From NCBI GenBank assembly GCA_035572035.1, contig DATNBH010000070.1, positions 37,813 through 101,812 on the forward strand: a DNA stretch of 64,000 nucleotides, in the 5' to 3' direction. Below, in pieces: positions 1 through 53,571 of the stretch. Numbering within the stretch: the first letter of the stretch is position 1; every line of letters begins with the position of its first letter. The stretch comes from Pyrinomonadaceae bacterium. GTDB lineage: Bacteria > Acidobacteriota > Blastocatellia > Pyrinomonadales > Pyrinomonadaceae. The notes beneath the pieces were generated by a model. It made no database searches. It was not told the DNA's origin and saw nothing but the letters and a program-made list of their open reading frames with translations. A program made the translations under genes and the position numbers.

Positions 1-532
1 AATTAGTAATGTGAACTTGCCGGCCGGCCAAACCATCACCGGGGCGACGATCACGTTCCACAACATTCGCAACTGGGACTCAAACGCGAACATGTTGTTC
101 GTCCACTTGCTGGACTCAGCACGCGCTGCCTCAGTCGGTTCGTTTGTTGACGCTAGCGGCTCACCGGTACTAGGGGATCAAATTAGGGATAACTTCGCTG
201 GAAGCCTTTATGTCAATAACCCGCTCGTGAATGCCGGCACCGGGAATACGTTTCTGGGTCAACACAGCTTCGGCACCACTGGGAGCGATTGGACCATAAC
301 GTTCAATGCGGCGCAGCTGGCAGCGCTCACCGCGTATCTGCAGAATGGCAACAACGTGGCGTTTGGTTTTGACCCTGACTGCCACTTCTGGAACAACGGC
401 ATCACCTTCAATTTCACGACGCAACCCACGACCGGAGTACCTGAGCCGACTACGATGTTGCTGCTCGGATCCGGAATTGCCGGACTCTATTTGAAACGCC
501 GGCGCAAACAAACCCAACCCAGCGAAAACTAA
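1..532 (+). CDS. PEP-CTERM sorting-domain protein (5' partial; frame open to window start)
   Basis: C-terminus GVPEPTTMLLLGSGIAGLYLKRRRK is a PEP motif + TM helix + basic tail, typical of exosortase substrates. The ORF begins at GTG and upstream codons are open to position 2. Confidence 0.7.
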   Translation, partial: ISNVNLPAGQTITGATITFHNIRNWDSNANMLFVHLLDSARAASVGSFVDASGSPVLGDQIRDNFAGSLYVNNPLVNAGTGNTFLGQHSFGTTGSDWTITFNAAQLAALTAYLQNGNNVAFGFDPDCHFWNNGITFNFTTQPTTGVPEPTTMLLLGSGIAGLYLKRRRKQTQPSEN

Positions 533-554
533 AGTCAGGGTATTCGCACAAAAG

Positions 555-602
555 AATCGGCGCGAGTGGGTTGCTCCACACTCGCGCCGATTTTTCTTTT
601 CT
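555..602 (+). terminator. Rho-independent terminator hairpin
   Basis: GC stem cggcgcgagtg...cactcgcgccg followed by a T-run, directly after the PEP-CTERM stop. Confidence 0.5.
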
Positions 603-613
603 TAGCCGCGGAT

Positions 614-691
614 AACAGGTGCTTAGAGTTCAATCTTTAGATTGCGTGGCGGTGAAACCACAAACTGAAGTTTGAACTCTAAACGCCTGTT
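614..691. repeat. Palindromic REP-like element, family A (TTAGAGTTCAA...TTGAACTCTAA)
   Basis: 78-bp imperfect palindrome. A second near-identical copy lies at 37588-37665. Confidence 0.6.
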
Positions 692-713
692 CATCCGTAG
701 CTCAATCTTCTTC

Positions 714-2126
714 CTACGCTGTGCGATGTTCCAAATTGTAATCGCGCAACCTTCGATACAAAGTCGAAGGTGAAATGCCGAGCAGCTCAGCAGTCTTACC
801 ACGATGCCAGCCAGTCTGCTCCAGTGCCGCGAGAATTTGCTGACGCTCAACTTCACGCAATGACAACGGACCCGTTGCCGCGGCTGCGGTGTTGTCGACA
901 ACCGCCGAGCTCGGCGCAGCCGCGCTTGGTTGCGGTGGCGCCAGAAAAGGCGCACGCACAACTTCCGGCGGCAACTCACTCACGGTAATCATTCCATTGT
1001 TCGCAAGTATGACCGCGCGCTCGAGACAGTTGCGCAGCTGCCGAACATTGCCGGGCCAGTGATACGCGCGCATCGCGGCCAACGCTTCCGGCGCAATCTC
1101 AGGCGGATTGGTTCCACCGACAATCTTGAGAAGATGTCGCGCCAAAGGCTCGACGTCTTCAGAGCGCTCACGCAGCGCCTTCAGATCGATTTGAAATCCA
1201 TTGATTCGATAAAGCAGGTCGGCTCGGAAAGCTCCATCACTCACAACCGTGTCGAGATTTCGATTCGTCGCGGCAATGATGCGCACGTTGACTTCGACTT
1301 TGCGCACGCCACCGACGCGGAAGAAGGTCCGCGTCTCGATCGCTCGCAAGAGCTTTGCCTGTAACTGGGCCGGCAGTTCAGTAACTTCATCCAGAAACAA
1401 CGAGCCGCCATCGGCGAGCTCTACTAAACCTAGCTTGCGTGCCTTCGCGCCTGAAAACGCTCCGGCTTCGTAGCCAAACAATTCTGATTCGAGCAGCGAC
1501 TCCTGAAACGCCGCGCAGTTGAGATCGATAAACGATCCTTGCGCGCGAGACGACAGCCGGTGAATAGCCTGGGCGATCAACTCTTTTCCAGTGCCCGACT
1601 CGCCTGTAATCAGCACCGACGTATCCGAAGGAGCGACGCGCGATACTAATCGCACCGCTTCTTTCATCGCATCGGAAACGGAAACAATTTCCGGCAACGC
1701 CGACTGTCTTGCAAGCTGCTCGCGTAGGCGCTGATTATCAACCCGCAGTTGCCGCTTCTCAGCAGCCTGACGCACGCGCACATCAAGCTCGCCAATGCTG
1801 TACGGCTTGGTGAGATAGTCATAAGCGCCAAGCTTCATCGCTTCGACTGCAGTCTCAACCGTAGCCTGCCCAGTCAGCATAATCACTTCGGGCGGATTCG
1901 GGCGTTCGTGCACGCGACGCAGTAACTCCATTCCGTCCATGCGCGGCATGTTGATGTCGCACAGCAACACATCGACATTCGTCTCTTCGAGCCGGCGCAG
2001 CGCAGCCTCGCCATCGGGCGCGACCTGAACACGATAACCGTGGCGTTCCAACTCCTTCTGCAACACCATGCGCAGGTTGGCTTCGTCTTCGGCTACCAAT
2101 ATTCGTGCTGCTTGTGATTCTGCCAA
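714..2126 (-). CDS. Sigma-54-dependent Fis-family response regulator (NtrC-like)
   Basis: N-terminal REC domain, AAA+ sigma54 activator core (GESGTGKELIAQAIH, GAFSGA), C-terminal Fis HTH. Confidence 0.9.
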   Translation of the reverse strand: MAESQAARILVAEDEANLRMVLQKELERHGYRVQVAPDGEAALRRLEETNVDVLLCDINMPRMDGMELLRRVHERPNPPEVIMLTGQATVETAVEAMKLGAYDYLTKPYSIGELDVRVRQAAEKRQLRVDNQRLREQLARQSALPEIVSVSDAMKEAVRLVSRVAPSDTSVLITGESGTGKELIAQAIHRLSSRAQGSFIDLNCAAFQESLLESELFGYEAGAFSGAKARKLGLVELADGGSLFLDEVTELPAQLQAKLLRAIETRTFFRVGGVRKVEVNVRIIAATNRNLDTVVSDGAFRADLLYRINGFQIDLKALRERSEDVEPLARHLLKIVGGTNPPEIAPEALAAMRAYHWPGNVRQLRNCLERAVILANNGMITVSELPPEVVRAPFLAPPQPSAAAPSSAVVDNTAAAATGPLSLREVERQQILAALEQTGWHRGKTAELLGISPSTLYRRLRDYNLEHRTA

Positions 2127-2128
2127 AA

Positions 2129-4177
2129 CTATCCCTCTGAAGTTGATTGATTGATGGCCGGAAGTGTTATGGTAAACGTCGTGCCCGCACCCACCGTGGA
2201 CTGCACATCAAGTCCACCACCATGCTCAGTTAAGATACCATAACAGACCGCGAGGCCAAGACCCGTTCCGTGCCCAACTTCCTTCGTTGTAAAGAACGGC
2301 TCGAAAATCTTCTGGAGATTCTCCGGAGAAATGCCGACTCCAGTGTCAGTGACTTCGACGAGAACCAGATCGTCTCGATTGCGCGCTGCGATAGTCAGCG
2401 TTCCTCCGTCGGGCATCGCATCGATGGCGTTGGTTGAGAGAGCGATGACTGCTTGCTGCAACTGACCCGCGTCGCCCGAGACTGGCGCCAGCTCGTCCGC
2501 TATTTTCAACTGGATCTCGATTCCCTCGCCTCGTTTTTGATGAGCGACGAGACGCGCTGCTGAAGAGATCACCTCGGAGAGATCGACCGGGCGTCTTCTC
2601 GCTGCGCGTGTGCGGCTGAAGTTGAGCAGACCGGTCGTGATGCTCTTGCAGCGAAAAGCTTCACTGCGAATCAAACCGAGATACTCGCGCAGATCGTCGA
2701 GCGCTTCCGAGCCGGCGAAAGCGCCTTCCTTCACTCGTGATTCCAACGCCTCTGCGCAAGCCGAGATCGTCGCCAGCGGATTATTGATTTCGTGGACCAC
2801 ACCCGACGCTAATCGTCCCACCGCCGCCAGCTTTTCGGCGCGAGCTACGGCGCGATTGGCTTCGACGCGCGCAGTGATATCTTCGCCAACCGCAATCACG
2901 TGCGTGACGTCAGTACCGCCGTCGGCCCACATCGGAATCTTACTGACCAGCCAATGACGAGTCTCGCCTTCAGCAGTCAAGGTCTCCTGCTCGACTCGCT
3001 TGATGCCGCCGGTCTTGAAAACATGCGCGAATTCCTGGTCCAGCATCTCGCGCTTCTGACGCGTCAGTACTTCGTGGACATCTTTGCCCATCACGTCCTC
3101 GCGCGGCATGCCCAACTCGCCCAGTTCGCGATTGCGGTTCCAGGCGGCGATGCGATAGTCGCGATCGATGGCGTAAAGCGAGAGCGGCAAGCTGTCGAGT
3201 ATCGCGTCGGTAAAGCGTCGCTGCGCTTCTGCTTCAGCGGTACGCTGATCGACTTCCTTAGCCAGGCTTTCAGACGCGTTGCGCACTTCGAGATAGAGCG
3301 ACGAGATGTGCGCTGCAAGCGCGGCTTGTTGCACTGCGGCTTCGACAAGGCGGCACTCCGTCTCGCCACAGTCCTCGGCGTTGTCGAAGGCTATGACCAG
3401 GACGCCTTTCGTGCGGCCGCCAAAGCGCAGCGGCGCGGCAAACTCCACCACGTGAGTTTCATCGCGAAGCAGAAAATCTTTGGGGTTGGTCAACAGCACG
3501 GACGTCATGTTGCCCGCGGAGGTTAACCAACGCTGCATGCGATCGAGATGCAGGAGTGATTCGTCTTCCGCGCTGCCTTCGCGGTCGAAGACACAGCCTG
3601 CTTGGGTCTGTTCATTCAAACCGACAAAGGCTGCGCAAAGTGCGGCGCCCGTGCCATCGAAGGTTGCGCCTGCCACTCGCCGCACCAGTTGCTCGGGCTC
3701 GAGCGTACGCAGCAGGCCTCGGCCAAGATCGGCGAGAAAGCGCAGCTCGCGATTGCTGCCGAGCAGCGCCCATTCACGTTGCGCGGCTCGAAGATGCGAG
3801 CTCACGCGCGAAACGAGCTCGCCGGCTGAGGAAGGCTTGGTGATGTAATCATCCGCGCCGGCTGAGAAGGCTTCGACTTTGCGCTTCTCATCGTCACTGG
3901 CGGAAAAAGCGATAATGGGCAGTTTGCTGGTAGCGCTTTGGGCTCGCAGCAGGCGGCACAAAGCAAAGCCATCCACGCCGGGCATCTCGAGATCGAGCAT
4001 GAGGAGGTCGCACTGTTCTCGATGGAGCAGACGCAGTGCTGATGGAGCGTCTTCGGCGGTCAGGGCTCGATAGCCCGCGTCCTCGAAGACACGGCGCAGG
4101 TTCACGCGCACCATCGCGTCGTCATCGACAATCAGGAGCGTTGCGTTGTGGCTGATTTCGGGAGCAGAAGCGGACAT
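2129..4177 (-). CDS. Hybrid sensor histidine kinase (REC-GAF-PAS-HisKA-HATPase)
   Basis: N-terminal receiver (LLIVDDD...[14 protein letters not shown]), H-box [11 protein letters not shown]-terminal ATPase G-boxes. Start chosen at internal ATG (MSASAPEIS); the Arg/Cys-rich N-terminal extension of the ORF is discarded. The stop abuts the NtrC gene. Confidence 0.85.
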
Positions 4178-4820
4178 TAGGTTCCAAGACGAGGAGTGAG
4201 ACCCAAAGGCTCGGCCAGGGGTTGCCGCTGTGCGGGTCAACTGGCTGGTATTGATTGAAAAGCATGCGGCCAGATCTGTCAAGAAGATTGATCTCCGCTT
4301 CGTCTGGCGCAGGTTGAATTCCGATTGCCAAGGTCGATGAGTTCGGAGGGTTCGGCAGTCAGTTAGGTCGTCGCGGAGTAATGCCACCCAAAGCACTTTA
4401 AGGCCGGAAAGGCCCACAAGCTTACACATCACGCTTGGGCTTAAGATTCCAAAACGTTCTGTCGACGGGCCTCAATACAGGCCGCGCCTAAGGCAAAATC
4501 AACGAAACCGAGCTCAGCAACCTAGGAGGGAATACAGACAAATGACCGTAGGTGAGGGCTGTTCTTAACCATTTCTCGTTGGTTTCTGGTAAGGGGGATT
4601 GCATATCCGCGCAACTCCTTTAGATTTGCACTTCGACTTTGAAGAAATATGTTGATTTCCTGTTAACTGCGGGTTTAATCTCACGCCGCTTCGTTATTTC
4701 TTTACTCCGCCAGCACCGCTGGCTTCTCGCGCGCCCGGACAGATCAAGCCTGGGCCGCCGGAAGATCAACCTGCAGCCGGATCGAAGCAACTCAAAAACG
4801 GCAAAACGAATTAGTACTCT

Positions 4821-5036
4821 TTAGAACACTAACAGCAGTTCTTGCAGCAGGTTCAAGGCTGCCTCCGTCACCGCCGCACTGGGCCCTTGGGTGACGCCGG
4901 GAAGCCGAATGTCACCCGGTTCCGTTGCTGCTGGCGGAGGTGGAGGACCCGGAATATGGATTTCACCTGCTACTACCGGAAGAGCCAGGACCGCAAGGAG
5001 CATTAGCGCAGCGGTGAGTTCTTTAAGTTTTTGCAT
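4821..5036 (-). CDS. Small secreted proline-rich protein (71 aa)
   Basis: AGGAGAA RBS 5 nt upstream of ATG; N-terminal signal peptide LMLLAVLALPVVAG; PPPPP stretch. Confidence 0.4.
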   Translation of the reverse strand: MQKLKELTAALMLLAVLALPVVAGEIHIPGPPPPPAATEPGDIRLPGVTQGPSAAVTEAALNLLQELLLVF

Positions 5037-5191
5037 TCGTGTTCTCCTAAATGAGGGAATTAGAAATCCTCGGAAAGGAACCGAACAGATCCCGAGATGA
5101 GGCTATCCTAGCATCCGTTAGTGGCGTCACGAACAAGCTCAAAGCACAGATGCAAATTTTTTTGCAAACGTGCTAGAAAAGGAATACTCAC

Positions 5192-7075
5192 ATGACTTTA
5201 GGGAAGGTCTTAGTTCACCAATTAGAGAACCCAAATCTCTCATTCGACGACCGCGTTGAGTTGCGGTGCAAACTTGCTAGGACCTTGGAGGAGGAGGGTA
5301 AATACGATGCAGCTCGTGAGGCGATGCTAGAGGTCTGGCCTGAATTCGACGAGAGGCCTCAGGTTGAAGGATTGTCTGAACAAAGCAGGGCTGACACCTT
5401 AATACGAGTTGGTGCGCTGACTGGCTGGATTGGCAGTGCTAACCAACTCGATGGTGCCCAAGAAATCGCCAAAGATTTCATAAGTGAAGGAATACGATCA
5501 TTCGAACTGCTGAACGAGCCTATGAAAGTCGCTGAAGCACAAACAGAACTTGCTGTCTGCTATTGGCGCGCAGGAGCCTTTCAGGAAGCTAGAGTGATTT
5601 TGCATCAAGCCTTTGGTGTCCTTAAAGAATCGCACAGTGAGGCGAAACTGGTGACCTTGCTGCGAACGGCAATAAACGAGGAGTCGGCTGGTCGCTATCA
5701 TGATGCCTTGCGAATACAAAAAGAGGCGTCTCTATTATTTGAACAGACTCCGAATTTCACACTTAGAGGCAAATTTCATCACTTATTTGGCTTTATCCTC
5801 CGGAAACTTTCGGAAGTTGAGCTTCGCCGAGATTACATTGACCAAGCTCTGATCGAATACGCGGCTGCAAGTTACTACTTCGAGGAAGCCGGACTCATCC
5901 GTCATCGAGCTTGTGTGGAAAACAATCTCGGGTTTCTATTCGGAACGATCGGAAGGTTTGGCGACGCACATGAACACCTCGACCTCGCCCAAACACTTTT
6001 CACCAGTCTGAAGGACTCGGTGCACCTGGCGCAGGTGGATGAAACTCGGGCGCGAGTGTTGTTGGCGGAAGGGCGATTGGTTGAGGCGGAGAAGACTGTC
6101 AGGGCATCGGTACGCACGCTGGAAAAGGGCGATGAGCAGTCGCTGCTCGCAGAAGCGTTAACGACCCACGGAATCGCACAAGCACGATTGAAGCACCCTG
6201 ACCAGGCAAAGGTTAGTCTGCAACGAGCTCTTGATGTAGCAGAGCGAGCGGGAGATCTCGAAAGCGCCGGCAACGCTGCGCTCGTAATCGTCGAAGAGTT
6301 AATCGACTATGTTCCGAATGATGAACTCAAGCTCACTGTAGATCGAGCCTCTGAACTGCTCGCCAAAACGCAGGACCTGTCAGCGCTGAAACGGCTCGCA
6401 AACTGTTCAAATCGCGTCCTCGCTAAGGTGCATGCCTCACCTCGCTTTCCGGGAAAGGTCGATTGGACCAACTTTTCCTTCAGGGGAACATTACTGGAGT
6501 ACGAAGCTCACCTTATCAATCTTGCGCTTGAAGATGCAGGCGGAGTGGTTAGCAAAGCGGCGCGATTGTTGGGATTCAATCATCATCAGAGTTTGCTTTC
6601 GATGTTGAATGGACGACATGAAGTCCTTCGCCACCGCAGCACGCCAATTCTGCCACGGCGTCGCAGCATCATTCGCAGTGGCGAGAACGGCTCACCGCCT
6701 GGCAAACGCGGCCGCAAACGAACGCTCAGGATACTGCTTATCGAAGACGATGCTTCTGTCTCAAGTCTAATCCAGGAGAACATCGATGGCCTGGGCGCTG
6801 AGGTCGAGGAAATTGCAGATGGCGCGTCCGGGATGGAACTGCTAGCTTCAGGTGTCCATTTCGATCTGCTGGTTCTAAAAAATGAGATTCCCGGCGTGAG
6901 TGGAAAGAATCTTGCACGTCTCGCGCGCAGCTTATCTCAGTATCGAAAGACGCCCATAGTGGTGCTTTCGGCGAACGCTGACGATCAGATTCAATCTAAT
7001 GATTCAAATCTCTTTTGGCTGAGTAGCGAGGAACCTAACCGGATAACGGAGACTATTAACCAGATTTTTCATTGA
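5192..7075 (+). CDS. TPR-like helical repeat protein with Fis-type HTH and C-terminal receiver (REC) domain
   Basis: About 440 aa of alpha-helical TPR-like repeats, then an NtrC-C-terminus-like HTH (LEDAGGVVSKAARLLGFNHHQSLLSMLN), then REC (RILLIEDDASV...FDLLVLKNEIPGVSG...IVVLSANAD). Confidence 0.75.
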   Translation: MTLGKVLVHQLENPNLSFDDRVELRCKLARTLEEEGKYDAAREAMLEVWPEFDERPQVEGLSEQSRADTLIRVGALTGWIGSANQLDGAQEIAKDFISEGIRSFELLNEPMKVAEAQTELAVCYWRAGAFQEARVILHQAFGVLKESHSEAKLVTLLRTAINEESAGRYHDALRIQKEASLLFEQTPNFTLRGKFHHLFGFILRKLSEVELRRDYIDQALIEYAAASYYFEEAGLIRHRACVENNLGFLFGTIGRFGDAHEHLDLAQTLFTSLKDSVHLAQVDETRARVLLAEGRLVEAEKTVRASVRTLEKGDEQSLLAEALTTHGIAQARLKHPDQAKVSLQRALDVAERAGDLESAGNAALVIVEELIDYVPNDELKLTVDRASELLAKTQDLSALKRLANCSNRVLAKVHASPRFPGKVDWTNFSFRGTLLEYEAHLINLALEDAGGVVSKAARLLGFNHHQSLLSMLNGRHEVLRHRSTPILPRRRSIIRSGENGSPPGKRGRKRTLRILLIEDDASVSSLIQENIDGLGAEVEEIADGASGMELLASGVHFDLLVLKNEIPGVSGKNLARLARSLSQYRKTPIVVLSANADDQIQSNDSNLFWLSSEEPNRITETINQIFH

Positions 7076-7460
7076 TCGATAGGTCGTACATACAGTTCGA
7101 CGGCAAGGAAGTCGGTCTTTACCCCTCACACTGTGGTAGCTCACCGGGCGCACTGGCGGCGCCTCAGACACCACGAAACCACCAATAACTTGCGGCCAGC
7201 CGGGGCGAAAGTCTCTTTCGCTTAACGGTATCAGTGTCGGTGAAAGACACGCCGCTTTTGAGTAGTTCGGATGGAGCTCCAACTCGAGATGCACCGATAG
7301 CGAGCCGTGCATCTCTTGCGCTGGCACGTTCGTTTATGGTGGGAACGAATGCGCCGCGAAGCCGCCACGCAACTGAGCATTACGTGGCGCAGGGGACCGG
7401 CACAGGCCTCTCACCCGTGCCGGTCTTCCGAATCAGAATCTGGAAACGATGATTAGTTCT

Positions 7461-7510
7461 GATCTCAGATCTGAGATCTGAGATCGATGATCGATGATCG
7501 ATGATCGATA
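7461..7510. repeat. Tandem heptamer repeats (GATCTGA x3, GATCGAT x4)
   Basis: Seen directly in sequence. Confidence 0.6.
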
Positions 7511-7607
7511 CCTAAGATTTGAGCCACTGAAATTCTGAGCTTCAACAACTTTCTTGCAGTACACATTGAGCTACGAAGGAGGGAAACTCGTAACAAAGTC
7601 AGAATCG

Positions 7608-7730
7608 ATATTCCACTTAGCGTTGGACGCCCAACCCTGAATTGAACGAACACGGATTCCACTTACGTTGACGGCCAACCCTAAGTAACTGCAGCCGGAT
7701 TCCACTTAGCGTGGGATGGTCCACGCACGC
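7608..7730 (+). promoter_or_regulatory. Three direct repeats (ATTCCACTTAGCGTTG-N-CCAACCCT) with about 44-bp phasing upstream of the RHS gene
   Basis: Copies begin near 7610, 7654 and 7697, lying 85-205 bp upstream of the 7814 start. This looks like a transcription-factor binding array. Confidence 0.4.
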
Positions 7731-7813
7731 AATTGCTATTCATAACACTCGTATGACTCTTGCTCGCCCATTGCTGGCTCGCTGTTGGATGAACTTTGAG
7801 AGGAGTCTAACCC

Positions 7814-10800
7814 GTGACCAACAGCACCGCTTCGCTTCGCAAGGCTTTCATTTCGCGCGTTTCCTTTTTCCTGTTTGTTCTTTCAATTCTGAGTCTGACC
7901 GCAAGTACGGCTACGGCTCAGAGAAGCATAACTGACGGATCGACACCGCTGGCGCTGACGCCGGGAGCCCCAGCAGGTTCATACGAATTAAGCAAGCTTG
8001 AATCCATAAATGCTTACAACGGCAGTTTGAACTTTCGCTTGCCCTTGGTCGAAATCGGCGGTCGCGGGAGTGCGGGTTATGTCCTGAGCCTTCCAATTGA
8101 AACGCATTGGCGCACGGTCCATCGGAGTAATGACAATCAAATGATTGAACTACCGTCTTCGAACTCGTGGGCTTTTCACAGACGCGGCTACGGCGCGGGT
8201 CAGTTAGAAGGCCGTCTCGGAACTGATCCGGATCACCCTTGTCCGCCGCTATTTCACAATACCTTGGTCTTGAGTCGTCTCACGTTCACAGCACCTGACG
8301 GCACGGAGTACGAACTACGAGATCAATTAACAGGCGGTCAGCCGCAATCCTACTTCTGCGGTGGCAACGCGTACCCTTCACGTGGGACCGTCTTCGCGAC
8401 GGCGGATGGCACTGCCGCGACCTTCATTTCGGACACGGTTATCCGAGACGACGGCTCGGTCATAAACCCGACCGGTTACCTCTCGCTTCGTGATGGCACC
8501 CGATTCAGAATTGTCAACAGTGACGTGATCTGGATGCGAGATCGAAATGGAAACCAGGTGACCTTCTCCTACGGCGACAAGGAAATGACCGTAACAGACT
8601 CATTAAATCGAAAAGTGAACGTGAAATATGCCGACTTTTCGGTTGGTCGTTTCTACGACGAAATCACTCACAAGGGTTTCGCCGGCGCTCAGCGAACGAT
8701 TCGTGTGAACTATGCACCGCTTCAATCCGCCCTGCGGACCAATCGCCCCGGAGACATAGGTACAATCCAAACATCGGCTGCCCTCTTCCCGCAATTAACA
8801 GGCGCTCCTACGCCCTCGAACCCGAACGTGGTTTCCTCGGTGGTTTTGCCCGATGGCGTGCTCCAGTATCAGTTTCTATATAACGTTTACGGCGAATTAG
8901 CACGCGTATCACTACCGACCGGCGGAGCCTATGAGTATGATTTCGGCACTGGTTCTGCGTACGGTGACGCTACCGGCGTTATTTGGAGTGGAGTGGGATT
9001 GCCTGAAATTTATCGACGCGTGTTGCGGCGCCGTGTGTACATCGATCAGGGTCTCACTCTGGTCGGGTTGTCGACGTACAGTAGGCCTGAAGTGGAGACG
9101 CCCGGCTACGTTGAAATCAACCATCTCAAGGCCGATCAGACAACCATACTCGCACGAGAGCGTCATCACTTTTACGGGATTGCCTCATCGTCATTCGATC
9201 AAAGCTCACTTGACTATTCATCCTGGCGAGACGGCAAGGAATACAAGACGGAATATTTCGGAGCGAATGGTTCTACTCTCCTGAAACGGGTCACGAACAC
9301 GTGGGGACAACGTAGTGTGAGTTGGTGGACTTTCAGTGCCGATGCCGCACCTCCGAACAATCCGTTCGTGACTGAAACCATTACGACCCTCCCCGCTACC
9401 GGACAAGTAACGAAAACATCGCACCTCAACCCGCAAAGCGGTCAGCCGATGATCGATCAGTTCAACAACATCACTGACACCTGGGTCTATGATTACGGGA
9501 AAGAAGCTCCTGGCGATTTGCTCAACCACACTCACATCGACTATTTGACGATTAACAATGGCGTCGATTATTCCAACCGGACCTCTCCTTCGAGTCCCCA
9601 CTTGTTAAGCCTTGTGACTCGGCAATCTGTCTATGACAAACTCGAAATTGAAAAAGCGCGAACAACTTTCGAGTATGACAACTATGCCGTTGACAATTTT
9701 CATGCGGGACTAAAAGACTGGCCGGCGCTAACTGGCGTTCCGATCAGTGGTCTTGATTCTTCGTTTACCGCCTCACAAACTTCTCGAGGAAATGTCACGG
9801 CCACCAACCGGTACTTGTTTGTTAATGGCCAGCCTTCACAACCAATCACTTCCTACATCCAATACGATCTAGCCGGCAACGCGGTCAAAAGCATCGACCC
9901 TCGCAGCACCGCACAGAACATCATCGCAACCACTATCAGCTACGACGATTGTTTCGGCAATCCGGACGCCGAAGCTCGCACAAATAATGTTCCAATCGAG
10001 CTGGCGTCACCCGCGCGGCGCACCTATGCCTTTGCTACCAGCGCTACCAATGCGCTTGGTCACAAAACCTATTCGCAATTCGACTACTTCCTTGGCCGCG
10101 TTGTGAATGTCGAAGATGCCAACGGTACGGTCTTCAGTGCCGGGTATAACGATGCTTTGGATAGACCGAAGCAGGTTACCAAAGCCGTGAATCGCGAGCT
10201 TAAATTCCAGAGCCTGACTACGTTTTCGTACGACGACACTGCTCATACGGTTACTACTGCAGGTGATCTGCGCTCATACGGGGACCAGGCATTAAGTGAC
10301 CAGATTCTTTTTGATGGACTGGGAAGGACTGTTGAGACTCGTAAGTACGAAGGAAACGGTAACTTCATAGCGGAACGTCGAATGTACGATGCCTTGAATC
10401 GAGTCGAGCAGTCTTCGAATCCTTTCCGTCCCTGGAAAAACGAAGGCCCTCTTTGGAATACGACTCAATTTGACGGATTGGGACGAATAGAGTTATCCAG
10501 GACGGCCGACGGCGCTACTTCAAGAATCGAGTACTCCGGCAACGAATTGCTTGCCATCGACCAGGTCGGCCAGAAAAGAAAGACTATTACCGATGCTCTC
10601 GGAAGGATCACAAAAGTCTACGAAGATCCGGATGGAGTCAATTGGCTGACCGAGTACCTTTACGACACTCTTGGGAATCTAACCACTGTCATCCAGGGGA
10701 ACCGGACTCGAACCTTCCAGTACGACGCGCTGTCACGCTTAACCTCATCGACGCAACCAGAAACCGGCACTCGGTCCAACACCTATGACCAGAATGGCAA

Positions 10801-13800
10801 TATCCTTACGAGCGCTGACGCCCGCGGCATAATCACAACTGCCGTTTACGATGCGCTGAATCGGCCCATCTCGAAAACTTATCAAAACGATCTCGCCGCT
10901 ACGCCGCCAGTTAACTTCTTCTATGACGGACAAGCGCTACCTGGCGGAGCGCCTCCGAACTTTTCCAGGGGCGCCTCCGTCGGACATCTGGTCGCTGTGG
11001 TGAACGGCGGCAGTACGAGTGAAGGCGATTATTACGGTTATGACCTGCTGGGCCGTCCGGTTATGAAGGTGCAGCGCACGGGTAACAGCAACTATGAGAT
11101 TAACACCGACTACAACGCCTCAAGCCGCACTATTTCGCTAATGTACCCTTCCGGTCACACTGTCTCGTACAACTACGACTCGGCGGGCCGGCTCGCTGAT
11201 CGAGATGGACAGAACCTGGCGATGGTCGGCAATCTCGGAGACGGTTTAGTACGCACCTACTCGAGCGGCATTACCTACAGTAATCGGAACGGACTGGCTC
11301 AGGAAAAACTCGGCACCGACACTGCGATTTACAACAAGCTCTTCTACAACTCTCGCGGACAGCTAGCCGAAATTCGAGCCGGCACCAGTGGGAACAACAC
11401 CAGTTGGAATCGCGGCGCCATCATTAATCATTTCAGTAACTCCTGCTGGGGTATGTGTGGAGGCGCTAACTCCGCCACTAGCATGACCGACAATAATGGC
11501 AATCTAAAACGGCAAGATGTTTACATTCCACAGAACGAACAGGTTTCGAGTTATACAACTTGGGCGGACGGCTACACTTATGATAATCTCAACCGGCTCA
11601 CACAGGTCCATGAGTACACTGACAATCCCTCGCTTGATTGGCAGCAATCTTTCGTCTACGACCAGTGGAGTAACCGGCGCATCAATCAAGCGCTAACTTA
11701 CGGGCCTTCGATTCCCAAGCCGGACTTCACCGTAGACAGTAACAACAGGCTGGCCGCCCCCGCTGGTTTCAACCTAAGCTATGACCCTTCCGGCAATCTC
11801 ATCTCTGATAACTTCACCGGAGAAGGTCAACGTGTTTATGACGCCGAGAATCGCCTGATCAAAGCCTGGGCCAACGGCCAATGGCAGACCTACACGTACG
11901 ACGCGATGGGTCAACGCACCAAACGCAGCGTGTCGGGAACCGAAACCTGGCAGATCTATGGTTTCTCGGGAGAGCTATTGGCTGAATACGCCGCCAACAG
12001 CGCGCCGACAATGGTCAGGAAAGAGTATGGCTATCGGAATGGGCAGTTGCTTGTGACAGCAGAACCCGCTCAAGCGGCGCGCACTAACTATGCCTTGGCG
12101 AGCAATGGAGCAATCGCGACCGCCTCATCGATTTTGTCAAACGCGTTTCCCGCTAGCGGGATTAACAACGGCGATCGAAAAGGATTGAACTGGGGCAATG
12201 GCGGAGGTTGGCGAGATGCCGAGCCAGGTAACACTTTTCCGGATTGGGTCGAGATAACTTTTCCGAGCGCGAAGACGATTGATGAAGTTGACGTCTTCAC
12301 TGTCCAGGACAACTACGCGAACCCCGCAGAACCGACTGAGGCAATGACCTTCGGCGTTTATGGGCTGACGGGTTACGAGGTGCAGTACTGGAACGGGAGC
12401 AGTTGGGCAACAGTCTCCGGTGGCAGCGTTACCGGTAGCAATAAGATCTGGCGCAAGATCACTTTTACGGCGCTCACTACAGCGAAGGTCAGAGTGCGAA
12501 CGAATGCGTCCATCGATGGCTACAGTCGTTTGGTGGAAGTTGAAGCCTGGGGCACTACGTCTGGAGCAGCACCGCGCACGAATGTAGCGCTCGCCGGTAA
12601 TGGTGGCGTGGCGAGCGCTTCCTCGCAATTGTCTGCATCATTTCCGGCGAGCGGAACGATTAACGGCGATCGGAAAGGGCTGAGCTGGGAAAACGGTGGC
12701 GGCTGGCGTGATGCTGAACCGCGAAACAGTTTTCCGGATTGGCTGCAGGTGGAGTTCAACGGCAGCAAGACCATCGATGAAGTCGATGTATTTACGATTC
12801 AGGACAATTACGCCAACCCGTCGGAACCAACCGAGAACATGACGTTCACTACCTATGGCACCACTGGGTATGAAGTGCAGTACTGGAATGGAAGTTCGTT
12901 CGCGGCAGTGCCGGGGGGCGCAGTCACAGGTAACAACAGAGTCTGGCGCAAGATTACTTTCCCTGCGGTGACAACCACGAAGATTCGAGTGCTAACAAAT
13001 GCAACCGCAGATGGCTATAGCCGGCTGGTTGAAGTGGAAGCGTGGACGGCGAGCTCAAGCTCCAGTGAGGCAAACATAAATTGGTTACTCGCGGACCAAC
13101 TCGGAACGCCACGAATGGTCTTCGATAAGTCGGGAAGTCTTGCATCTGTAAAGCGCCATGACTATCTGCCTTTCGGCGAGGAGATCGGCGCAGGCGTTGG
13201 CATCCGGAGCAATTCGCTTGGATACAGCCTAAGCGACGGCGTCCGCCAAAAGTTCACCTCAAAAGAGCGAGACAGCGAAACGGGTCTCGACTATTTTCTG
13301 GCGCGTTACTATCACAGTTCTCAGGGAAGATTCATAAGTCCCGACCCGCTCCTCGCGAGTGGCCGCCCCGGCAACCCTCAAACCTGGAATCGCTATGCGT
13401 ATGCTTTGAATAATCCGCTGCGGTTCACCGATCCCGACGGTCTGGCTGCTAATGAAAGCACCGGCTTCGTTGATTTTCAACAAGGAAATACCCCACAACA
13501 GCCACTACCGACGCCGCCAACTACCCAGCAAAGCGGGACAGGTGAAAATGGACAGGTGTTCGCACCCAAGATAGACCTGACGACATTTTCCTTCGGAACG
13601 GTGGAAGTTAATGGAGCGTCGCCCATTTTCGCAGGCCCTCCTGTACCCTTGGATAGTCAGCCAAATTTGATAATGAACCAAGGAACGACGGCTATGGCGA
13701 ATAATGATTTGAATGGCATGATCGCCATTACCGAACTGCTATTGCACCCAGGTACAGGCGGCGCGGTATCTCTTTCACTCTCTTTGGGTACGGGTGTCGC

Positions 13801-14107
13801 CCCGAACATCAACTGGACTCTAAACAAGACTTTTTACGTACGCTCGCCGGAGGAGGTGTTGCTCCAAACCGGAATCGCGAACCGCACCATCCAGGGAGGA
13901 GTAGCAGAGAAGTTGTCTAAAACTGAAAGCTTAGTTGCTGCTGGCGGAAACTGCCCCAGGCGACTAGGTGACGTCGCAACCATTGGGGGTGCAAATCTGG
14001 CATCAATCTTTGGCCAACAGGCTCGTGACACTGCCCAGGAGGTCGCGCTAGCCAGGTATCAACAGGACTACAGTGCTAACCCATCCTCGGAGTATGTGCC
14101 GCATTAG
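7814..14107 (+). CDS. RHS/YD-repeat polymorphic toxin protein with two tandem F5/8-type-C (discoidin) domains, RHS core (DPDGL) and variable C-terminal toxin domain
   Basis: Sec signal peptide. About 25 YD repeats ([28 protein letters not shown]...). Two roughly 160-aa discoidin-like domains of about 75% identity at 12085-12555 and 12575-13045. RHS core [17 protein letters not shown]...[11 protein letters not shown] ends near 13446. An unrelated roughly 215-aa C-terminal domain follows. GTG start with AGGAG RBS. Confidence 0.9.
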
Positions 14108-14166
14108 AAAAACGGAAGATCGTAGCGATGTTCACCAAATCTGATTCAGTCCAAGGAAGGAGTGCT

Positions 14167-14832
14167 ATGACCCTACGCAAACCTGTTCTCTTTGCTCTTA
14201 TCTCTTTGAATCTCTGTTTTCAATCGATCGACTTCCGCTGCCTCGCGCAAAACGGAAATATAGTTGTACCTGCGCCGGTATCGATTTATCCGCCAGCGCC
14301 GGCGTTGGAGGCGAAGGCGGTCGGCGATGTGAAGTCGTTTAAGCGAACGCGGTCTGATCTCAAGGCTTCAGTGTTGTCTCACCCGATTCCCGAGGCAACC
14401 CTCGTTTTCGTCTTGCGCGACAAACGGGATGCCAAGGTGATTGTGAAATTGCCAGAAGAAGCAAAGAAGCCACTGACGGAATGCTGGCATGCTGAACTCA
14501 CTTTCTTCTACCTGAGTACGTTCGAAGTTCATGACCTCGAAACCAGAATCAGGGAGCGAGAGACCTTCGGATCCGTGGTGGCAAATGTCCAGGCCAAACT
14601 ACAGAAGTTGACCATAGATACTCCAACCGGCAGGAGAAAGATCTCTCTGAATGAAGCTGTTAGTCTGACGCATCTCCTAAATGAATCGGCTCAATGCGTC
14701 GTTGACGAAGCGAAAGAGAGCCTCAGAGGCAAACCTGTTGCTGGAGTGAAGGGTAGACAGCGATGCCATTTTTTGGCTTCATTCGACGCGATGGACGAAA
14801 CCATGCAGAGTTTGAACCTGACAGGCACATAA
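14167..14832 (+). CDS. Secreted protein immediately downstream of RHS toxin (candidate immunity protein)
   Basis: GGAAGGAG RBS; signal peptide MTLRKPVLFALISLNLCFQS..CLAQ; 60 bp after the RHS stop; no recognisable domain. Confidence 0.45.
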   Translation: MTLRKPVLFALISLNLCFQSIDFRCLAQNGNIVVPAPVSIYPPAPALEAKAVGDVKSFKRTRSDLKASVLSHPIPEATLVFVLRDKRDAKVIVKLPEEAKKPLTECWHAELTFFYLSTFEVHDLETRIRERETFGSVVANVQAKLQKLTIDTPTGRRKISLNEAVSLTHLLNESAQCVVDEAKESLRGKPVAGVKGRQRCHFLASFDAMDETMQSLNLTGT

Positions 14833-14882
14833 AACCCAACGCGGGGTTGCGTGCCTGTTTTCACGCAACCCCGCAAGGGCTC
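14833..14882. terminator. Hairpin between convergent genes (bidirectional terminator candidate)
   Basis: acgcggggttgcgtg...cacgcaaccccgc stem. Confidence 0.4.
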
Positions 14883-14904: not shown

Positions 14905-17061
14905 CTAATTCACTGAGATAGAGGCAAGCTCGTCGTCAGGGTGAGCACTGATTGGGGCAGTGGGAATCGTGTCGTCCATCAGCGAAATGTTCGCAAGATC
15001 TAACTGGTTAGACATAATTGACGGGTTTGACAGAACTGACTGGTTCGAGAGAGCTGTGGGGCTCGAGAGAATTGCGGCGTTCAAAGGCCTCGAGACGTCC
15101 GCAGGAACACGGGAGATTGGGCGAAGCGGTGAGACATTCGCGGCACCATCAACTGCGGCGCGCTTGTGATCGGACTTGACGCGGTACATCGCCTGGTCGG
15201 CGACAATCAACAGCTGATCAAGACTCTCGCCGTCGATATCGAACGTAGCCGTGCCGACGCTGATACCAACGCGCGCATACTTGTCACCGCTCACGCGCAT
15301 CGCAAAATGCGCGATCGCATTCTCGATGCGCGAGCGCAAGTCCTCAACCTGACCGTCTCCGACTTCCTGCACAATCGCTACAAACTCATCGCCGGCGTAG
15401 CGCGCCAGGAAATCGTACTCGCGCAGCTGCTCCTGAATCAGATGCGCCACCTCGCGCAGCATCTTGTCGCCGACCTTGTGACCAAACGTATCGTTCACCG
15501 TCTTGAAGTCATCGAGGTCCAGCATCACCACCTGGAAAGGCCGTCCCGTGCGCCGCGCGCGCGAGACTTCCTGCTCGAACCGCAGCGCCATGTAACGCGG
15601 ATTGGGCAAGCCCGTCAGCGCATCCGTCAGCGCGTGCGATTCAGCCTCAGCGTGATGCATCGCATTCGTGAGCGCATCCGAAGCCAGACGCGTCACCGTC
15701 TCGAGCATGCGCATGTGATCGTCGGTGTACTGCTCCAGCTCGACTGAGTACACCGAAAGCGCGCCAATCAAAACTTCATTCTTGAACAACGGCAGCGACG
15801 CCATCGATCGAAATGTCGAAGCCGGCAAACCAAAGTCAAGAAAGTCGAGATTCGGGTGCAGCTTGTTCACCGGACTGCGGTTCGCAAGCGCGAAGCCCGT
15901 GACGCCTTCGCCCGGCGCTATGCAGCGAGTCTTAATCAAGTCAGCGTATTGGCCGACAACGTGGGCGGCATTCGCGTGACCCTTCAGCTCGTCGTACAGG
16001 TAGACCGCGCACGTATCCCAGGGCACCAGGTGACCGACCTTGTCGACGAGCACCGTCAACGTTTCCTTCAATTCCAGCGATGATCCAAACGTGCGCGCAA
16101 TCTCATAGAGCGCGTAGCCTTCGCGATCGGCGTCTTTGATTTGGTTGTAGGCCTGGTAGCAGCCACGCTCGCGTGTTTGCGCCAGGTCGACGTTCGTCAT
16201 CTTGAGCGGCTCGCGCCAGCTGTGGCCATGGTCCTGCGCCTGCAAATCCTGCGCTGCGATCGCTGCTTCAAAGCGAGGCAGGCTCTCGATGAATGCGTCC
16301 ACCACTCTCGGATCGAAATGATTTCCAGAACCGCGGCGCAACATCGCAATCGCTTCATCACGGGTCATGCTCGGACGGAACGGCCGATCCTCGCGCACTG
16401 AATCAAAGCAGTCGATGACCGAGAAGATGCGCGCGGTCAGCGGAATCTGTTCGCCGGCCAAACCGTCGGGATAGCCCTGGCCATCCCATTGCTCGTGGTG
16501 ATGTCTGACAATGGGAACGACCGGAAACGGAAAATCGACGCGACTCAACATCTGCGCGCCCACGGTCGTGTGAATTTTCATCTTTTCGAATTCAGCCGCG
16601 GTGAGCCTGCCTGGCTTATTCAAAATATGGGCCGGCACTGCCAGCTTCCCGACGTCGTGCAGCAACGCGCCGCTCTTCAACGCGGCAATTTCAGAACTGG
16701 AAAGTCCAAAGGCCTCGCCCATTCCTTCAGCGTAAAGTTGCACGCGGCGAACGTGGCAATGCGTAGTCTGGTCCTTCGCATCGATCGCGGTGGCGAGGGC
16801 TTCGGCAGTAGCCAAATGCAAACGACTCATCGCCTCAGCCTCGTTTGCTTTCGTACTCAGTCGATCGAGAAGCATCTTGCGCATGAAGTAAGAGATGCCC
16901 GCCAAAACTATTACCGGCATCAGCGCGCGCGCGACACGAACGTAGGTAAAGGTTTGTGATTCGTAAGCGATCCACACACCTACAATCGAGACAGAGAAAA
17001 TCAGTACTGCCCAGTAGAGTCTGATGGCTCGGTTGTAACCAGACACATCGGGGGTTTGCAT
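14905..17061 (-). CDS. Membrane-anchored c-di-GMP signalling protein: HD-GYP phosphodiesterase + GAF + GGDEF-type domain (AGDEF variant)
   Basis: N-terminal TM helices; HD...HHEQWDGQGYPDGL; C-terminal diguanylate-cyclase fold with YAGDEF. Confidence 0.85.
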   Translation of the reverse strand: MQTPDVSGYNRAIRLYWAVLIFSVSIVGVWIAYESQTFTYVRVARALMPVIVLAGISYFMRKMLLDRLSTKANEAEAMSRLHLATAEALATAIDAKDQTTHCHVRRVQLYAEGMGEAFGLSSSEIAALKSGALLHDVGKLAVPAHILNKPGRLTAAEFEKMKIHTTVGAQMLSRVDFPFPVVPIVRHHHEQWDGQGYPDGLAGEQIPLTARIFSVIDCFDSVREDRPFRPSMTRDEAIAMLRRGSGNHFDPRVVDAFIESLPRFEAAIAAQDLQAQDHGHSWREPLKMTNVDLAQTRERGCYQAYNQIKDADREGYALYEIARTFGSSLELKETLTVLVDKVGHLVPWDTCAVYLYDELKGHANAAHVVGQYADLIKTRCIAPGEGVTGFALANRSPVNKLHPNLDFLDFGLPASTFRSMASLPLFKNEVLIGALSVYSVELEQYTDDHMRMLETVTRLASDALTNAMHHAEAESHALTDALTGLPNPRYMALRFEQEVSRARRTGRPFQVVMLDLDDFKTVNDTFGHKVGDKMLREVAHLIQEQLREYDFLARYAGDEFVAIVQEVGDGQVEDLRSRIENAIAHFAMRVSGDKYARVGISVGTATFDIDGESLDQLLIVADQAMYRVKSDHKRAAVDGAANVSPLRPISRVPADVSRPLNAAILSSPTALSNQSVLSNPSIMSNQLDLANISLMDDTIPTAPISAHPDDELASISVN

Positions 17062-20525: not shown

Positions 20526-20951
20526 CTACTTTTGCAAAAGGCCCGTGACAAACTCGTCGTAGCGGCTGCGATCCTTATCGCTCATCGCTGCAATCGAAAC
20601 GCCAATTAGATATCCGTGCTCCGCCCCTTCTTCATCGAGCCGTTCGTAGCGGACTGGAGTCACCTGAACTTCAATCGTTCCGTCAGGCAACTCGACGTCC
20701 AGGATCAACGTGCGATTTTCGCCGGCCAGGTAATGATCGCCGATCCGAATGACGGGGACCACTACAGCAAGCCCGGTTGTACTAATGTCGAGAGTGTGGC
20801 CGCTGGTGGATTGTCCGCGATTTACCGTGTGGCTGTGAGACTCCTCAAGCAACGTAACCACGACCGGCAAATTTGCCTGACAGCGTTCCGCGCGTCTGCG
20901 GTCGCCAATGAAATGGCGAAGTCTTGATGCGATGTTGCGTGCGAGTTCAGA
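20526..20951 (-). CDS. PilZ-domain protein (c-di-GMP receptor)
   Basis: RRRAERCQANLPVVV...GHTLDISTTGLAVVV matches the RxxxR...D/NxSxxG PilZ motifs. Start placed at MSELARN because the longer ORF would run into the MITE-like repeat TIR. Confidence 0.7.
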   Translation of the reverse strand, partial: SELARNIASRLRHFIGDRRRAERCQANLPVVVTLLEESHSHTVNRGQSTSGHTLDISTTGLAVVVPVIRIGDHYLAGENRTLILDVELPDGTIEVQVTPVRYERLDEEGAEHGYLIGVSIAAMSDKDRSRYDEFVTGLLQK

Positions 20952-21080
20952 CATTTGCACCGCGCTGGATCGGGAACCCGGGCTGAACGCTTCGTTATTG
21001 AGGAGGGCAAAGTCGGGGAATGAACTGTCAACCCATTCTAGAGAAGTAATGTCGGACTGCGCAATGATTAAGTTTCGACG

Positions 21081-21390
21081 CAGTGCGCCAAGAAAAGGTA
21101 GGTAAGGCAAAAATGGTGAACTGAAGCCGTAGCCGATACCACAGGCTGGCCCTGTGGTGTTTCATGTTCACCGCTACAAAAACAGGCTGATCCATCGGTT
21201 CGCAAGAGGCTGCGGGCTCGCCCCGTGGTGTTTCACGGTTGCCGCTGCCGCCAACCTGAAGCCTGAACACTCCACGGGACGAGCCCGTGGCATCACCGAA
21301 AATCTCGGCCCGCCTCTGTTAGCGACCAACGTGAGTGACCACGGCGCCAGGCCGTGGCCTCAGTTTTAGCGACTACCTACTTTTTCTTGC
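21081..21390. mobile_element. MITE-like element, family D: 310 bp with terminal inverted repeats CAAGAAAAGGTAGGTAG and internal CCACGG..CCGTGG hairpins
   Basis: Left end GCGCCAAGAAAAGGTAGGTAAGG and right end AGCGACTACCTACTTTTTCTTG are inverted. Partial copies at 39224-39352 (inverted, about 85 bp near-identical) and 48994-49062. Confidence 0.6.
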
Positions 21391-53456: not shown

Positions 53457-53571
53457 TTTGTGTTGACGGGGCTCTGTGGTGCCCGCCCGGACGCTACGCA
53501 ATCAGAACGCCAGCGTCACTGGAATCGATCAAATTAGAACAAAGTGAGTGTAACACAGCTCGATCGTCGGA

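Follow-up and report, generated by a model that had tools for sequence, protein, structure and literature searches.

The RHS gene and its signal-peptide-bearing neighbor

The 64,000-nucleotide stretch analyzed here, from contig DATNBH010000070.1 of a Pyrinomonadaceae (Acidobacteriota) metagenome-assembled genome (MAG) and referred to below as the window, carries a gene for a large rearrangement hotspot (RHS) protein and, directly downstream, a gene for a small protein with a predicted signal peptide of its own (Table 1). The C-terminal tail of the RHS protein and this downstream partner are the subject of our analysis. The RHS product is an exact match to HXD33880.1 in the protein collection, where it is annotated as an "RHS repeat-associated core domain-containing protein" of a Pyrinomonadaceae MAG. 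Its shell is recognizable from YD/RHS repeats (PF05593, E 3e-23, in five stretches; TIGR01643, E 1e-9), and its predicted Sec leader keeps both the (V/M)(T/S)NST start and the A-QRS cleavage site in two related loci, L001 and L005. Signal peptides of the RHS protein and of the partner were called by rule, not with SignalP.

The alignment to TIGR03696 covers amino acids (aa) 1808-1877 of the RHS protein (profile positions 13-76 of 76) and stops exactly at DPDGL, which closes a canonical PxxxxDPxGL motif located by regular expression at aa 1868-1877; this core-end motif has been described previously (bioRxiv 10.1101/2024.02.26.582050). DPDGL is presumably the site of autoproteolysis, with the cut falling after L1877, as judged from the literature on RHS and Tc proteins. 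The tail that follows is 220 aa long (aa 1878-2097; nucleotides 13445-14104) and consists of a linker and a 185-aa domain that is rich in Gly (10.8%), Ala (10.8%), Thr (8.1%), and Asn (7.0%), as well as Ser. The tail is acidic, with a calculated isoelectric point (pI) of 4.7. A first-pass annotation, made by a model from the letters of the DNA, had already ended the core at DPDGL, and the end of the TIGR03696 match coincides with that position; its layout of the tail (a Pro/Gln-rich linker and then a Gly/Ala/Asn-rich domain) also stands, but the tail is slightly longer than the approximately 215 aa it gave.

The partner gene begins 59 nucleotides (nt) past the TAG stop codon of the RHS gene, one less than the 60 in the first-pass annotation, which was right about the strong ribosome-binding site (RBS): the Shine-Dalgarno-like sequence AAGGAAGGAG ends 4 nt ahead of the start codon. 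The mechanical list of open reading frames (ORFs) has the gene start 13 codons further upstream, at another ATG in the same frame (14128), but homologues and the RBS favor 14167. The Sec signal peptide proposed for the partner is supported by an n-region (MTLRK), a hydrophobic core (KD11 2.43), small residues at -3 and -1, and an Ala-Gln cleavage site with an invariant A27 (alignment A5). This layout of n-, h-, and c-regions, with the conserved Ala-Gln site, recurs in every readable partner homologue, though the leader sequences themselves differ. The mature protein is basic (pI 8.8).

Nine partner homologues were found through a word-index search, with further ones in L011, L012, L014, and L015. 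We consider the downstream gene to be real because these homologues are 28-80% identical and the ratio of nonsynonymous to synonymous substitution rates (dN/dS) is 0.08-0.14. A scan of genome representatives with the partner alignment returned L013 only, which carries the same pair as L012. The AlphaFold2 (AF2) model of the partner has an overall pLDDT of 67, with a core (residues 45-188) at about 80-90. Most homologues stop right after ...KP(V/I)A and thus have no counterpart of the C-terminal extension seen in the window, which probably arose by loss of a stop codon. Over residues 189-221 the model falls below a pLDDT of 50; this stretch sets in four residues ahead of the extension and so covers the last conserved residues, GKPVA, as well. 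A different C-terminal extension is present in P0009. The hairpin downstream of the partner gene likely marks the end of a two-gene RHS operon.

Table 1. Features of the RHS locus in the window
Feature	Position	Strand	Basis
RHS/YD-repeat protein gene (2097 aa)	7814-14107	+	ORF; PF05593, TIGR01643, TIGR03696
Predicted Sec signal peptide of the RHS protein (aa 1-35; cut between ATA and QRS)	7814-7918	+	Rule-based call; KD19 1.96
Two tandem F5/8-type-C (discoidin/NedA-like) domains, directly before the C-terminal core	12080-13048	+	PF22633, E 4e-12, two stretches
Rhs-associated core, ending at DPDGL (13430-13444)	13235-13444	+	TIGR03696, E 1e-18
Pro/Gln-rich linker of the tail	13445-13549	+	Sequence; partly kept in homologues
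C-terminal domain (185 aa), candidate toxin of a new family	13550-14104	+	Homologues after DPxG(L/M); AF2 model
Shine-Dalgarno-like AAGGAAGGAG, 4 nt ahead of the partner ATG	14153-14162	+	Sequence
Downstream partner gene (221 aa), candidate periplasmic immunity protein	14167-14832	+	Homologues; dN/dS; AF2 model
Predicted signal peptide of the partner (aa 1-27; cut between CLA and Q)	14167-14247	+	Rule-based call
Window-specific C-terminal extension of the partner (aa 193-221, 29 residues)	14743-14829	+	Alignment A2
Hairpin (14-bp stem) between the partner gene and the convergent HD-GYP/GAF/GGDEF gene	14840-14875	.	

A rare protein family at the RHS tip

Relatives of the tail were sought with an exhaustive phmmer search of 1.84 billion representative proteins (E <= 1e-3). 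Four of the five matches were accepted as genuine relatives: P0010, a piece of an RHS protein with 47% identity; P0011, a fragment at 33%; P0013, whose sequence begins within the core end of an RHS protein and has the family domain behind DPTGM; and P0014, an RHS fragment in which DPNGL is followed by the domain at 25-33% identity. The fifth, P0012, is a repeat-domain protein that aligns in four short stretches and was rejected as a false positive. Contigs with partner homologues added further members, with the full tail at 52-62% identity in L005, L006, L007, and L008 (alignment A1) and at about 48% identity in L011. In total, homologues of the tail occur after DPxG(L/M) in eight other loci or proteins, all from Acidobacteriota or from unassigned soil or environmental contigs. 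The word-index search found no match with the tail alone and only P0013 with a 10-sequence tail alignment, and the scan of genome representatives with the tail alignment found none. The word-index result has a technical cause: the RHS protein of the window falls in a 90% cluster represented by a 558-aa fragment, so the tail relatives were missed. As far as sequence comparison reaches, the tail is a genuine and very rare family, seen solely at the tip of RHS proteins.

Two of the loci are irregular. On the contig that encodes P0010 (L015, 1571-2309), the RHS tip fragment starts at an internal Met and adjoins a DDE transposase fragment and a helix-turn-helix (HTH) gene; it may be a disrupted or orphan copy. 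In L014 (1666-8541), the RHS protein is apparently split over ORFs of 146 and 818 aa, the 846-aa P0014, and a separate protein of 388 aa that has two F5/8-type-C domains. Frameshifts, misassembly, or a true split of the RHS protein may be the cause.

The first-pass annotation saw no recognizable toxin signature in the tail, and database searches agree: there was no match in Pfam, NCBIfam, or PADLOC and, in profile searches of all PDB chain sequences with tail and partner, none below E 0.2. For the partner, searches of the same three family collections gave only a sub-threshold PADLOC hit (PDC-M27C, E 0.0078, 12.6 bits). Ten members of the tail family and nine of the partner family, scanned singly at E <= 5, had no family common to even two members. 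The AF2 models of both proteins were also compared with PDB folds, as the first-pass annotation had suggested, and no specific match was obtained for either. The tail model (pLDDT 68, pTM 0.71) has three long helices (36-65, 100-123, and 150-175) and a beta-hairpin (73-78/92-97).

Twelve positions are invariant across the wider tail family (F15, N39, M49, N52, V97, N111, Q115, L122, S127, A151, R159, and A162), and N43, Y170, and Q171 are nearly so. There is no invariant Asp, Glu, His, Cys, or Lys among the ten sequences. The sole conservatively acidic position is E101 of the domain (E2013 of the RHS protein), which is Glu or Asp in all ten and sits beside N39, N43, N52, N111, Q115, S127, R159, and Y170. 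The tail has no hydrophobic segment of transmembrane grade; its highest 19-residue value (KD19) is 1.17.

Joint divergence of tail and partner, and replacement of the tail

A partner homologue lies directly after the tail in each of the nine loci with readable downstream DNA (window, L005, L006, L007, L008, L011, L012/L013, L014, and L015), including an array of orphan RHS tips and a pair that is just about 30-39% identical. The partner of L005 has its true start at ATG 6234, with a leader; that of L012/L013 is 32% identical and is recovered by hhalign with a probability of 99.5%; L014 encodes a 204-aa homologue after P0014; and the leader of a homologue is visible at the contig end of L015. 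Both tail and partner genes are under purifying selection. Pairwise identities of tails and partners are strongly correlated (Pearson 0.87, Spearman 0.89; 28 pairs from eight loci). The comparison of L005 with L008 provides a sharper test, because shared ancestry adds to this correlation.

Between L005 and L008, nucleotide identity is 93.9% at the RHS core end, 74.8% in the linker, 56.8% in the tail domain, about 53% in the intergenic region and partner leader, and 70.4% in the mature partner, and then 95.8% in the MacB-like gene that follows. Synonymous divergence (dS) rises from 0.23 at the core end to 2.75 for the tail and 1.84 for the partner, about 10-fold higher in the cassette, and dN/dS stays within 0.08-0.20. 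Such an island of high dS with low dN/dS argues that tail and partner were swapped jointly by recombination, rather than having evolved faster in place.

Replacement of the tail is seen in L001, which comes from a syntenic Pyrinomonadaceae genome with the neighbors found in the window: a TPR/response-regulator gene ahead of the locus and HD-GYP/GGDEF, major facilitator superfamily (MFS), LDcluster4, and CBM9 genes after it. Its DNA is homologous to the window up to 13395 and then again from 14154, at the RBS of the partner gene. The replacement cassette (L001 8692-9965) encodes another tail (219 aa, rich in Ala, Gly, Ser, Thr, and Asn) and a new leader-bearing protein of 185 aa, neither of which has a significant match in Pfam (there is just a weak one to DUF4829, E 0.009). 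The old partner is retained after the new genes and is 76% identical to that of the window (dN/dS 0.14). The new tail does not qualify as a distant member of the family (BLASTP E 0.17 over 12 aa; hhalign probability 2%), nor does the 185-aa protein qualify as a paralogue of the partner (hhalign probability 0.1%). In its gene order and homology, L001 has the classic appearance of a locus in which a new tip/immunity cassette displaced the old tip and left the old immunity gene behind as a still-useful orphan.

The pair also occurs apart from any shell. L012 (ENA ERZ28573525 scaffold_4208, 1-11374), whose pair is found again in the Acidobacteriota MAG GL53_Down_metabat_36 (L013), contains at least five arrayed RHS tips that lack a shell, each with a different tail followed by a small gene. 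The modules share a near-identical core-end tract (...GTPRMIAERTG...NNPLNLTDPTG), and one of them is the pair of the window type, with P0013 starting inside the core end and the partner next to it. Three of the small genes have signal peptides, and one encodes a DUF6980 protein without a leader. None of the five tails has a Pfam toxin domain. One of them (5490-6539) includes an approximately 70-residue hydrophobic stretch rich in Gly, Ala, Val, and Ile, which has the look of a pore former. In the window itself, no orphan or paralogous copy of tail or partner was found elsewhere.

These loci bear on whether the partner could instead be an accessory factor that chaperones the tail in the periplasm, activates it, acts as a co-toxin, or assists its release or secretion. 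Its intact state in L001, where the cognate tail is gone, and its evolution about as slowly as the RHS core would suit such a role, and there is a reported precedent of immunity-like partners that activate effectors (bioRxiv 10.1101/2023.03.28.534661). However, the partner tracks the tail and not the shell, co-varying with it inside the near-identical flanks of L005 and L008, and it is found beside shell-less orphan tips in L012. Its retention after displacement of the tail is the classic pattern of orphan immunity, and the new tail of L001 is accompanied, where an immunity gene would lie, by a signal-peptide gene of its own. We regard an accessory role as quite unlikely.

We give even less credence to the tail being a non-toxic cargo or functional domain (adhesion, signaling, or matrix) of a surface or periplasmic RHS protein, with the neighbor as its periplasmic ligand. 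The lack of a recognizable catalytic center, the carbohydrate-binding inserts in the shell, and the stable syntenic chromosomal site flanked by cyclic di-GMP (c-di-GMP) and two-component signaling genes would all be compatible with this. However, it is conflict systems, not housekeeping domains, that are marked by tail replacement, orphan arrays, and recombination islands, and the tail follows an autoproteolysis motif, the position where RHS proteins carry toxins.

The proposal of a candidate novel toxin/immunity pair in the first-pass annotation is thus supported, at the level of sequence, by linkage, joint divergence, and cassette replacement. Three observations were named there as arguing otherwise, and none was made: the tail is not conserved at full length in all orthologues, as it is replaced in L001 and lies in a divergence island between L005 and L008; the partner is linked in 9/9 loci, including distant pairs in other contexts; and the tail matches no known non-toxic fold, or indeed any family or fold.

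The RHS gene has a second polymorphic site, a variable insert in the shell before the C-terminal core of orthologues that are otherwise 67-70% identical. The insert consists of two F5/8-type-C domains in the window, two LamG/pentaxin-type domains in L001 (RHS 2681-9358), and two DUF4214 domains in L012 (2021-4642), and L005 (RHS 777-6188) has none; a fragment in L007 apparently has an F5/8-type-C insert like that of the window. It is possibly a receptor- or carbohydrate-binding module. In the window, L001, L005, and L006, the Pyrinomonadaceae RHS locus is syntenic between a TPR/receiver/HTH_8 regulator and an HD-GYP-GAF-GGDEF protein, and a PilZ protein is encoded nearby in the window and L001 (in the window, the two flanking signaling genes and the PilZ gene lie at 5192-7075, 14905-17061, and 20526-21110). 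This setting suggests, tentatively, that the RHS operon is controlled in connection with c-di-GMP. L005 and L008 have a MacB/FtsX-type gene inserted between the two flanking genes. Unrelated to the pair, a Schlafen/AlbA_2 protein (PF04326, E 6e-22) is encoded at 52146-53501 of the window amid housekeeping genes.

Site of action, delivery, and relation to known systems

We conclude that the locus is probably (at roughly 70%) a Sec-dependent RHS system, independent of a type VI secretion system (T6SS), in which the tail would be a toxin of an unnamed family and the signal-peptide-bearing neighbor its cognate periplasmic immunity protein. The RHS protein would be exported by its own Sec leader, with the YD-repeat shell enclosing the tail and the tail cut off after L1877 at PxxxxDPxGL. 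The acidic 185-aa domain would then act outside the cytoplasmic membrane, in the periplasm, on peptidoglycan, or at the membrane surface, and the basic mature partner would neutralize it by 1:1 binding in the periplasm, with which the complementary isoelectric points are weakly consistent. RHS genes exchange tail and candidate immunity gene as a cassette, through recombination at their conserved core end. That the tail is toxic, that it acts in the periplasm or on the envelope, and that the partner neutralizes it by binding are all predictions from this sequence analysis.

We place the target of the tail outside the cytoplasm because the export signal on the putative immunity protein is conserved; when an immunity protein depends on its signal peptide, this is commonly taken as evidence that the toxin acts there (PMC6899460). 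A toxin with a cytoplasmic target is nevertheless conceivable if the periplasmic partner guards the producer while the RHS protein is in transit, or intercepts incoming toxin before import. The Sec leader would indeed take the RHS protein through the producer's periplasm. In WapA/WapI and CdiA-CT/CdiI, other Sec-dependent polymorphic toxin systems with cytoplasmic targets, the immunity proteins are cytoplasmic as well. In transit the tail should lie inside the shell, and no nuclease, deaminase, ADP-ribosyltransferase, or NADase signature or fold was found in it. Although T6SS-linked Rhs effectors are mostly intracellular (bioRxiv 10.1101/2024.02.26.582050), we think a cytoplasmic target unlikely here. 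The behavior of the cassette, as read from sequence, disfavors all three alternatives that we have weighed.

Regarding delivery, the RHS protein has no PAAR, VgrG, or prePAAR domain (Pfam, NCBIfam) and no N-terminal PVxxxxGE motif (regular expression), and none of the 24 larger ORFs scanned over the 64-kb window was recognized as a T6SS component; they encode signaling proteins, transporters, peptidases, tRNA synthetases, and dehydrogenase subunits. Neither the RHS protein nor its neighbors gave a Pfam match to the features of TcB/TcC of Tc toxins (an SpvB/TcdB-type N terminus, a beta-propeller, or a TcA partner). What the protein does have is an N-terminal leader (by rule), RHS repeats, and no other trafficking domain, the combination that defines the recognized class of polymorphic RHS toxins exported through Sec and the type II secretion system (T2SS) (PMC3482391 Table 1).

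How the tail might act is a more tentative matter. Classical hydrolases and helical pore formers are disfavored by its conserved Asn, Gln, Ser, Arg, and Tyr residues with a single acid and by the absence of hydrophobic segments. The tail also shows no family profile, catalytic motif, or fold of the known envelope-acting families (Tae/Tge/Tle, colicin M, lysozyme/SLT, and pore formers of colicin or Tse5 type), and neither the hydrophobic helical hairpin nor the glycine zipper of pore formers. A single-Glu mechanism like that of lysozyme or lytic transglycosylases was weighed for the one conserved acid and found no support from motif or fold. We therefore lean, with low confidence, toward a tail that binds or perturbs an envelope component or is an atypical single-acid enzyme, in preference to a classical hydrolase. 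It is a still more speculative idea that the tail is a toxin of new fold with no conventional catalytic center, for example one that binds a periplasmic or peptidoglycan-precursor target, that Acidobacteriota deliver such RHS proteins by Sec export independently of a T6SS, and that the partner founds a new family of soluble periplasmic immunity proteins.

Several points weigh against the toxin/immunity interpretation as a whole. Part of the correlation between tail and partner identities may come from shared phylogeny, and among close loci the partner (70-80%) is more conserved than the tail (44-72%), approximately at the level of the RHS core. There is no anomaly in GC content of the kind left by recent transfer (0.53 and 0.51, versus 0.53 for the window). 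The AF2 models are of moderate quality (pLDDT 67-68, from shallow alignments) and matched nothing specific, which leaves the mechanism unconstrained. A survey found T6SS-linked Rhs effectors to be almost exclusively intracellular (bioRxiv 10.1101/2024.02.26.582050), so an envelope-acting RHS tip would be the less common case. Finally, a Sec-exported RHS protein would still need a route across the outer membrane and to a neighboring cell.

The pair is well suited to experiments but conceptually no surprise. RHS tips have already yielded new toxic activities and enzyme tools, and to our knowledge soil Acidobacteriota such as Pyrinomonadaceae have essentially no experimentally studied interbacterial weapons. 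The predicted export of the partner directs attention to the cell envelope, where Rhs effectors are seldom placed, and a Sec-led RHS protein in a diderm raises the question of how the container exits and contacts its target. Should the tail prove toxic, the pair would open up a new envelope target or mechanism and a way to study RHS delivery without a T6SS; otherwise, the locus is one more uncharacterized RHS cassette. Were the reading of a non-catalytic toxin of new fold to hold, both a novel toxic mechanism and a novel route of RHS delivery across two outer membranes would follow.

The locus shares with the T6SS Rhs effectors (RhsA, RhsP, and Tse5/RhsP1 with Tsi5) a YD shell, a core ending in PxxxxDPxGL, a variable tail, a downstream immunity gene, and orphan modules. 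It differs from them in its Sec leader, in having no PAAR/VgrG/prePAAR domain, PVxxxxGE motif, or T6SS genes found in 64 kb, and in a candidate immunity protein that is predicted to be soluble and exported. Its tail matches no described Rhs toxin domain and has no hydrophobic or glycine-zipper segment like that of Tse5 (maximum KD19 1.17). The tips of WapA are tRNases with cytoplasmic immunity proteins in a monoderm host. Like WapA/WapI of Bacillus subtilis and the Sec/T2SS class (Zhang et al. 2012, PMC3482391 Table 1), the locus encodes a leader-led YD/RHS protein with a polymorphic C terminus and an adjacent immunity gene, independent of a T6SS; unlike WapA/WapI, it belongs to a diderm acidobacterium and has a candidate immunity protein that is predicted to be exported.

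In the periplasm-acting T6SS pairs (Tse1/Tsi1, Tse3/Tsi3, and VgrG2b-Cter/PA0261; PMC6899460), the toxins are recognizable amidases, muramidases, or metallopeptidases delivered by a T6SS, whereas the tail described here lacks these signatures and comes with an RHS shell. Like the non-catalytic toxin domains (W-TIP, Ntox38, and C-terminal OmpA-like; PMC3482391 section 36), it occupies the toxin position without a conserved catalytic set, which suggests that it would act by binding or by perturbing a membrane. However, the domain studied here is unrelated to these in sequence, larger (185 aa), soluble-looking, and alpha/beta. Overall, the pair is a new and very rare family inside the well-known RHS kind of polymorphic toxin, and not a new kind of system.

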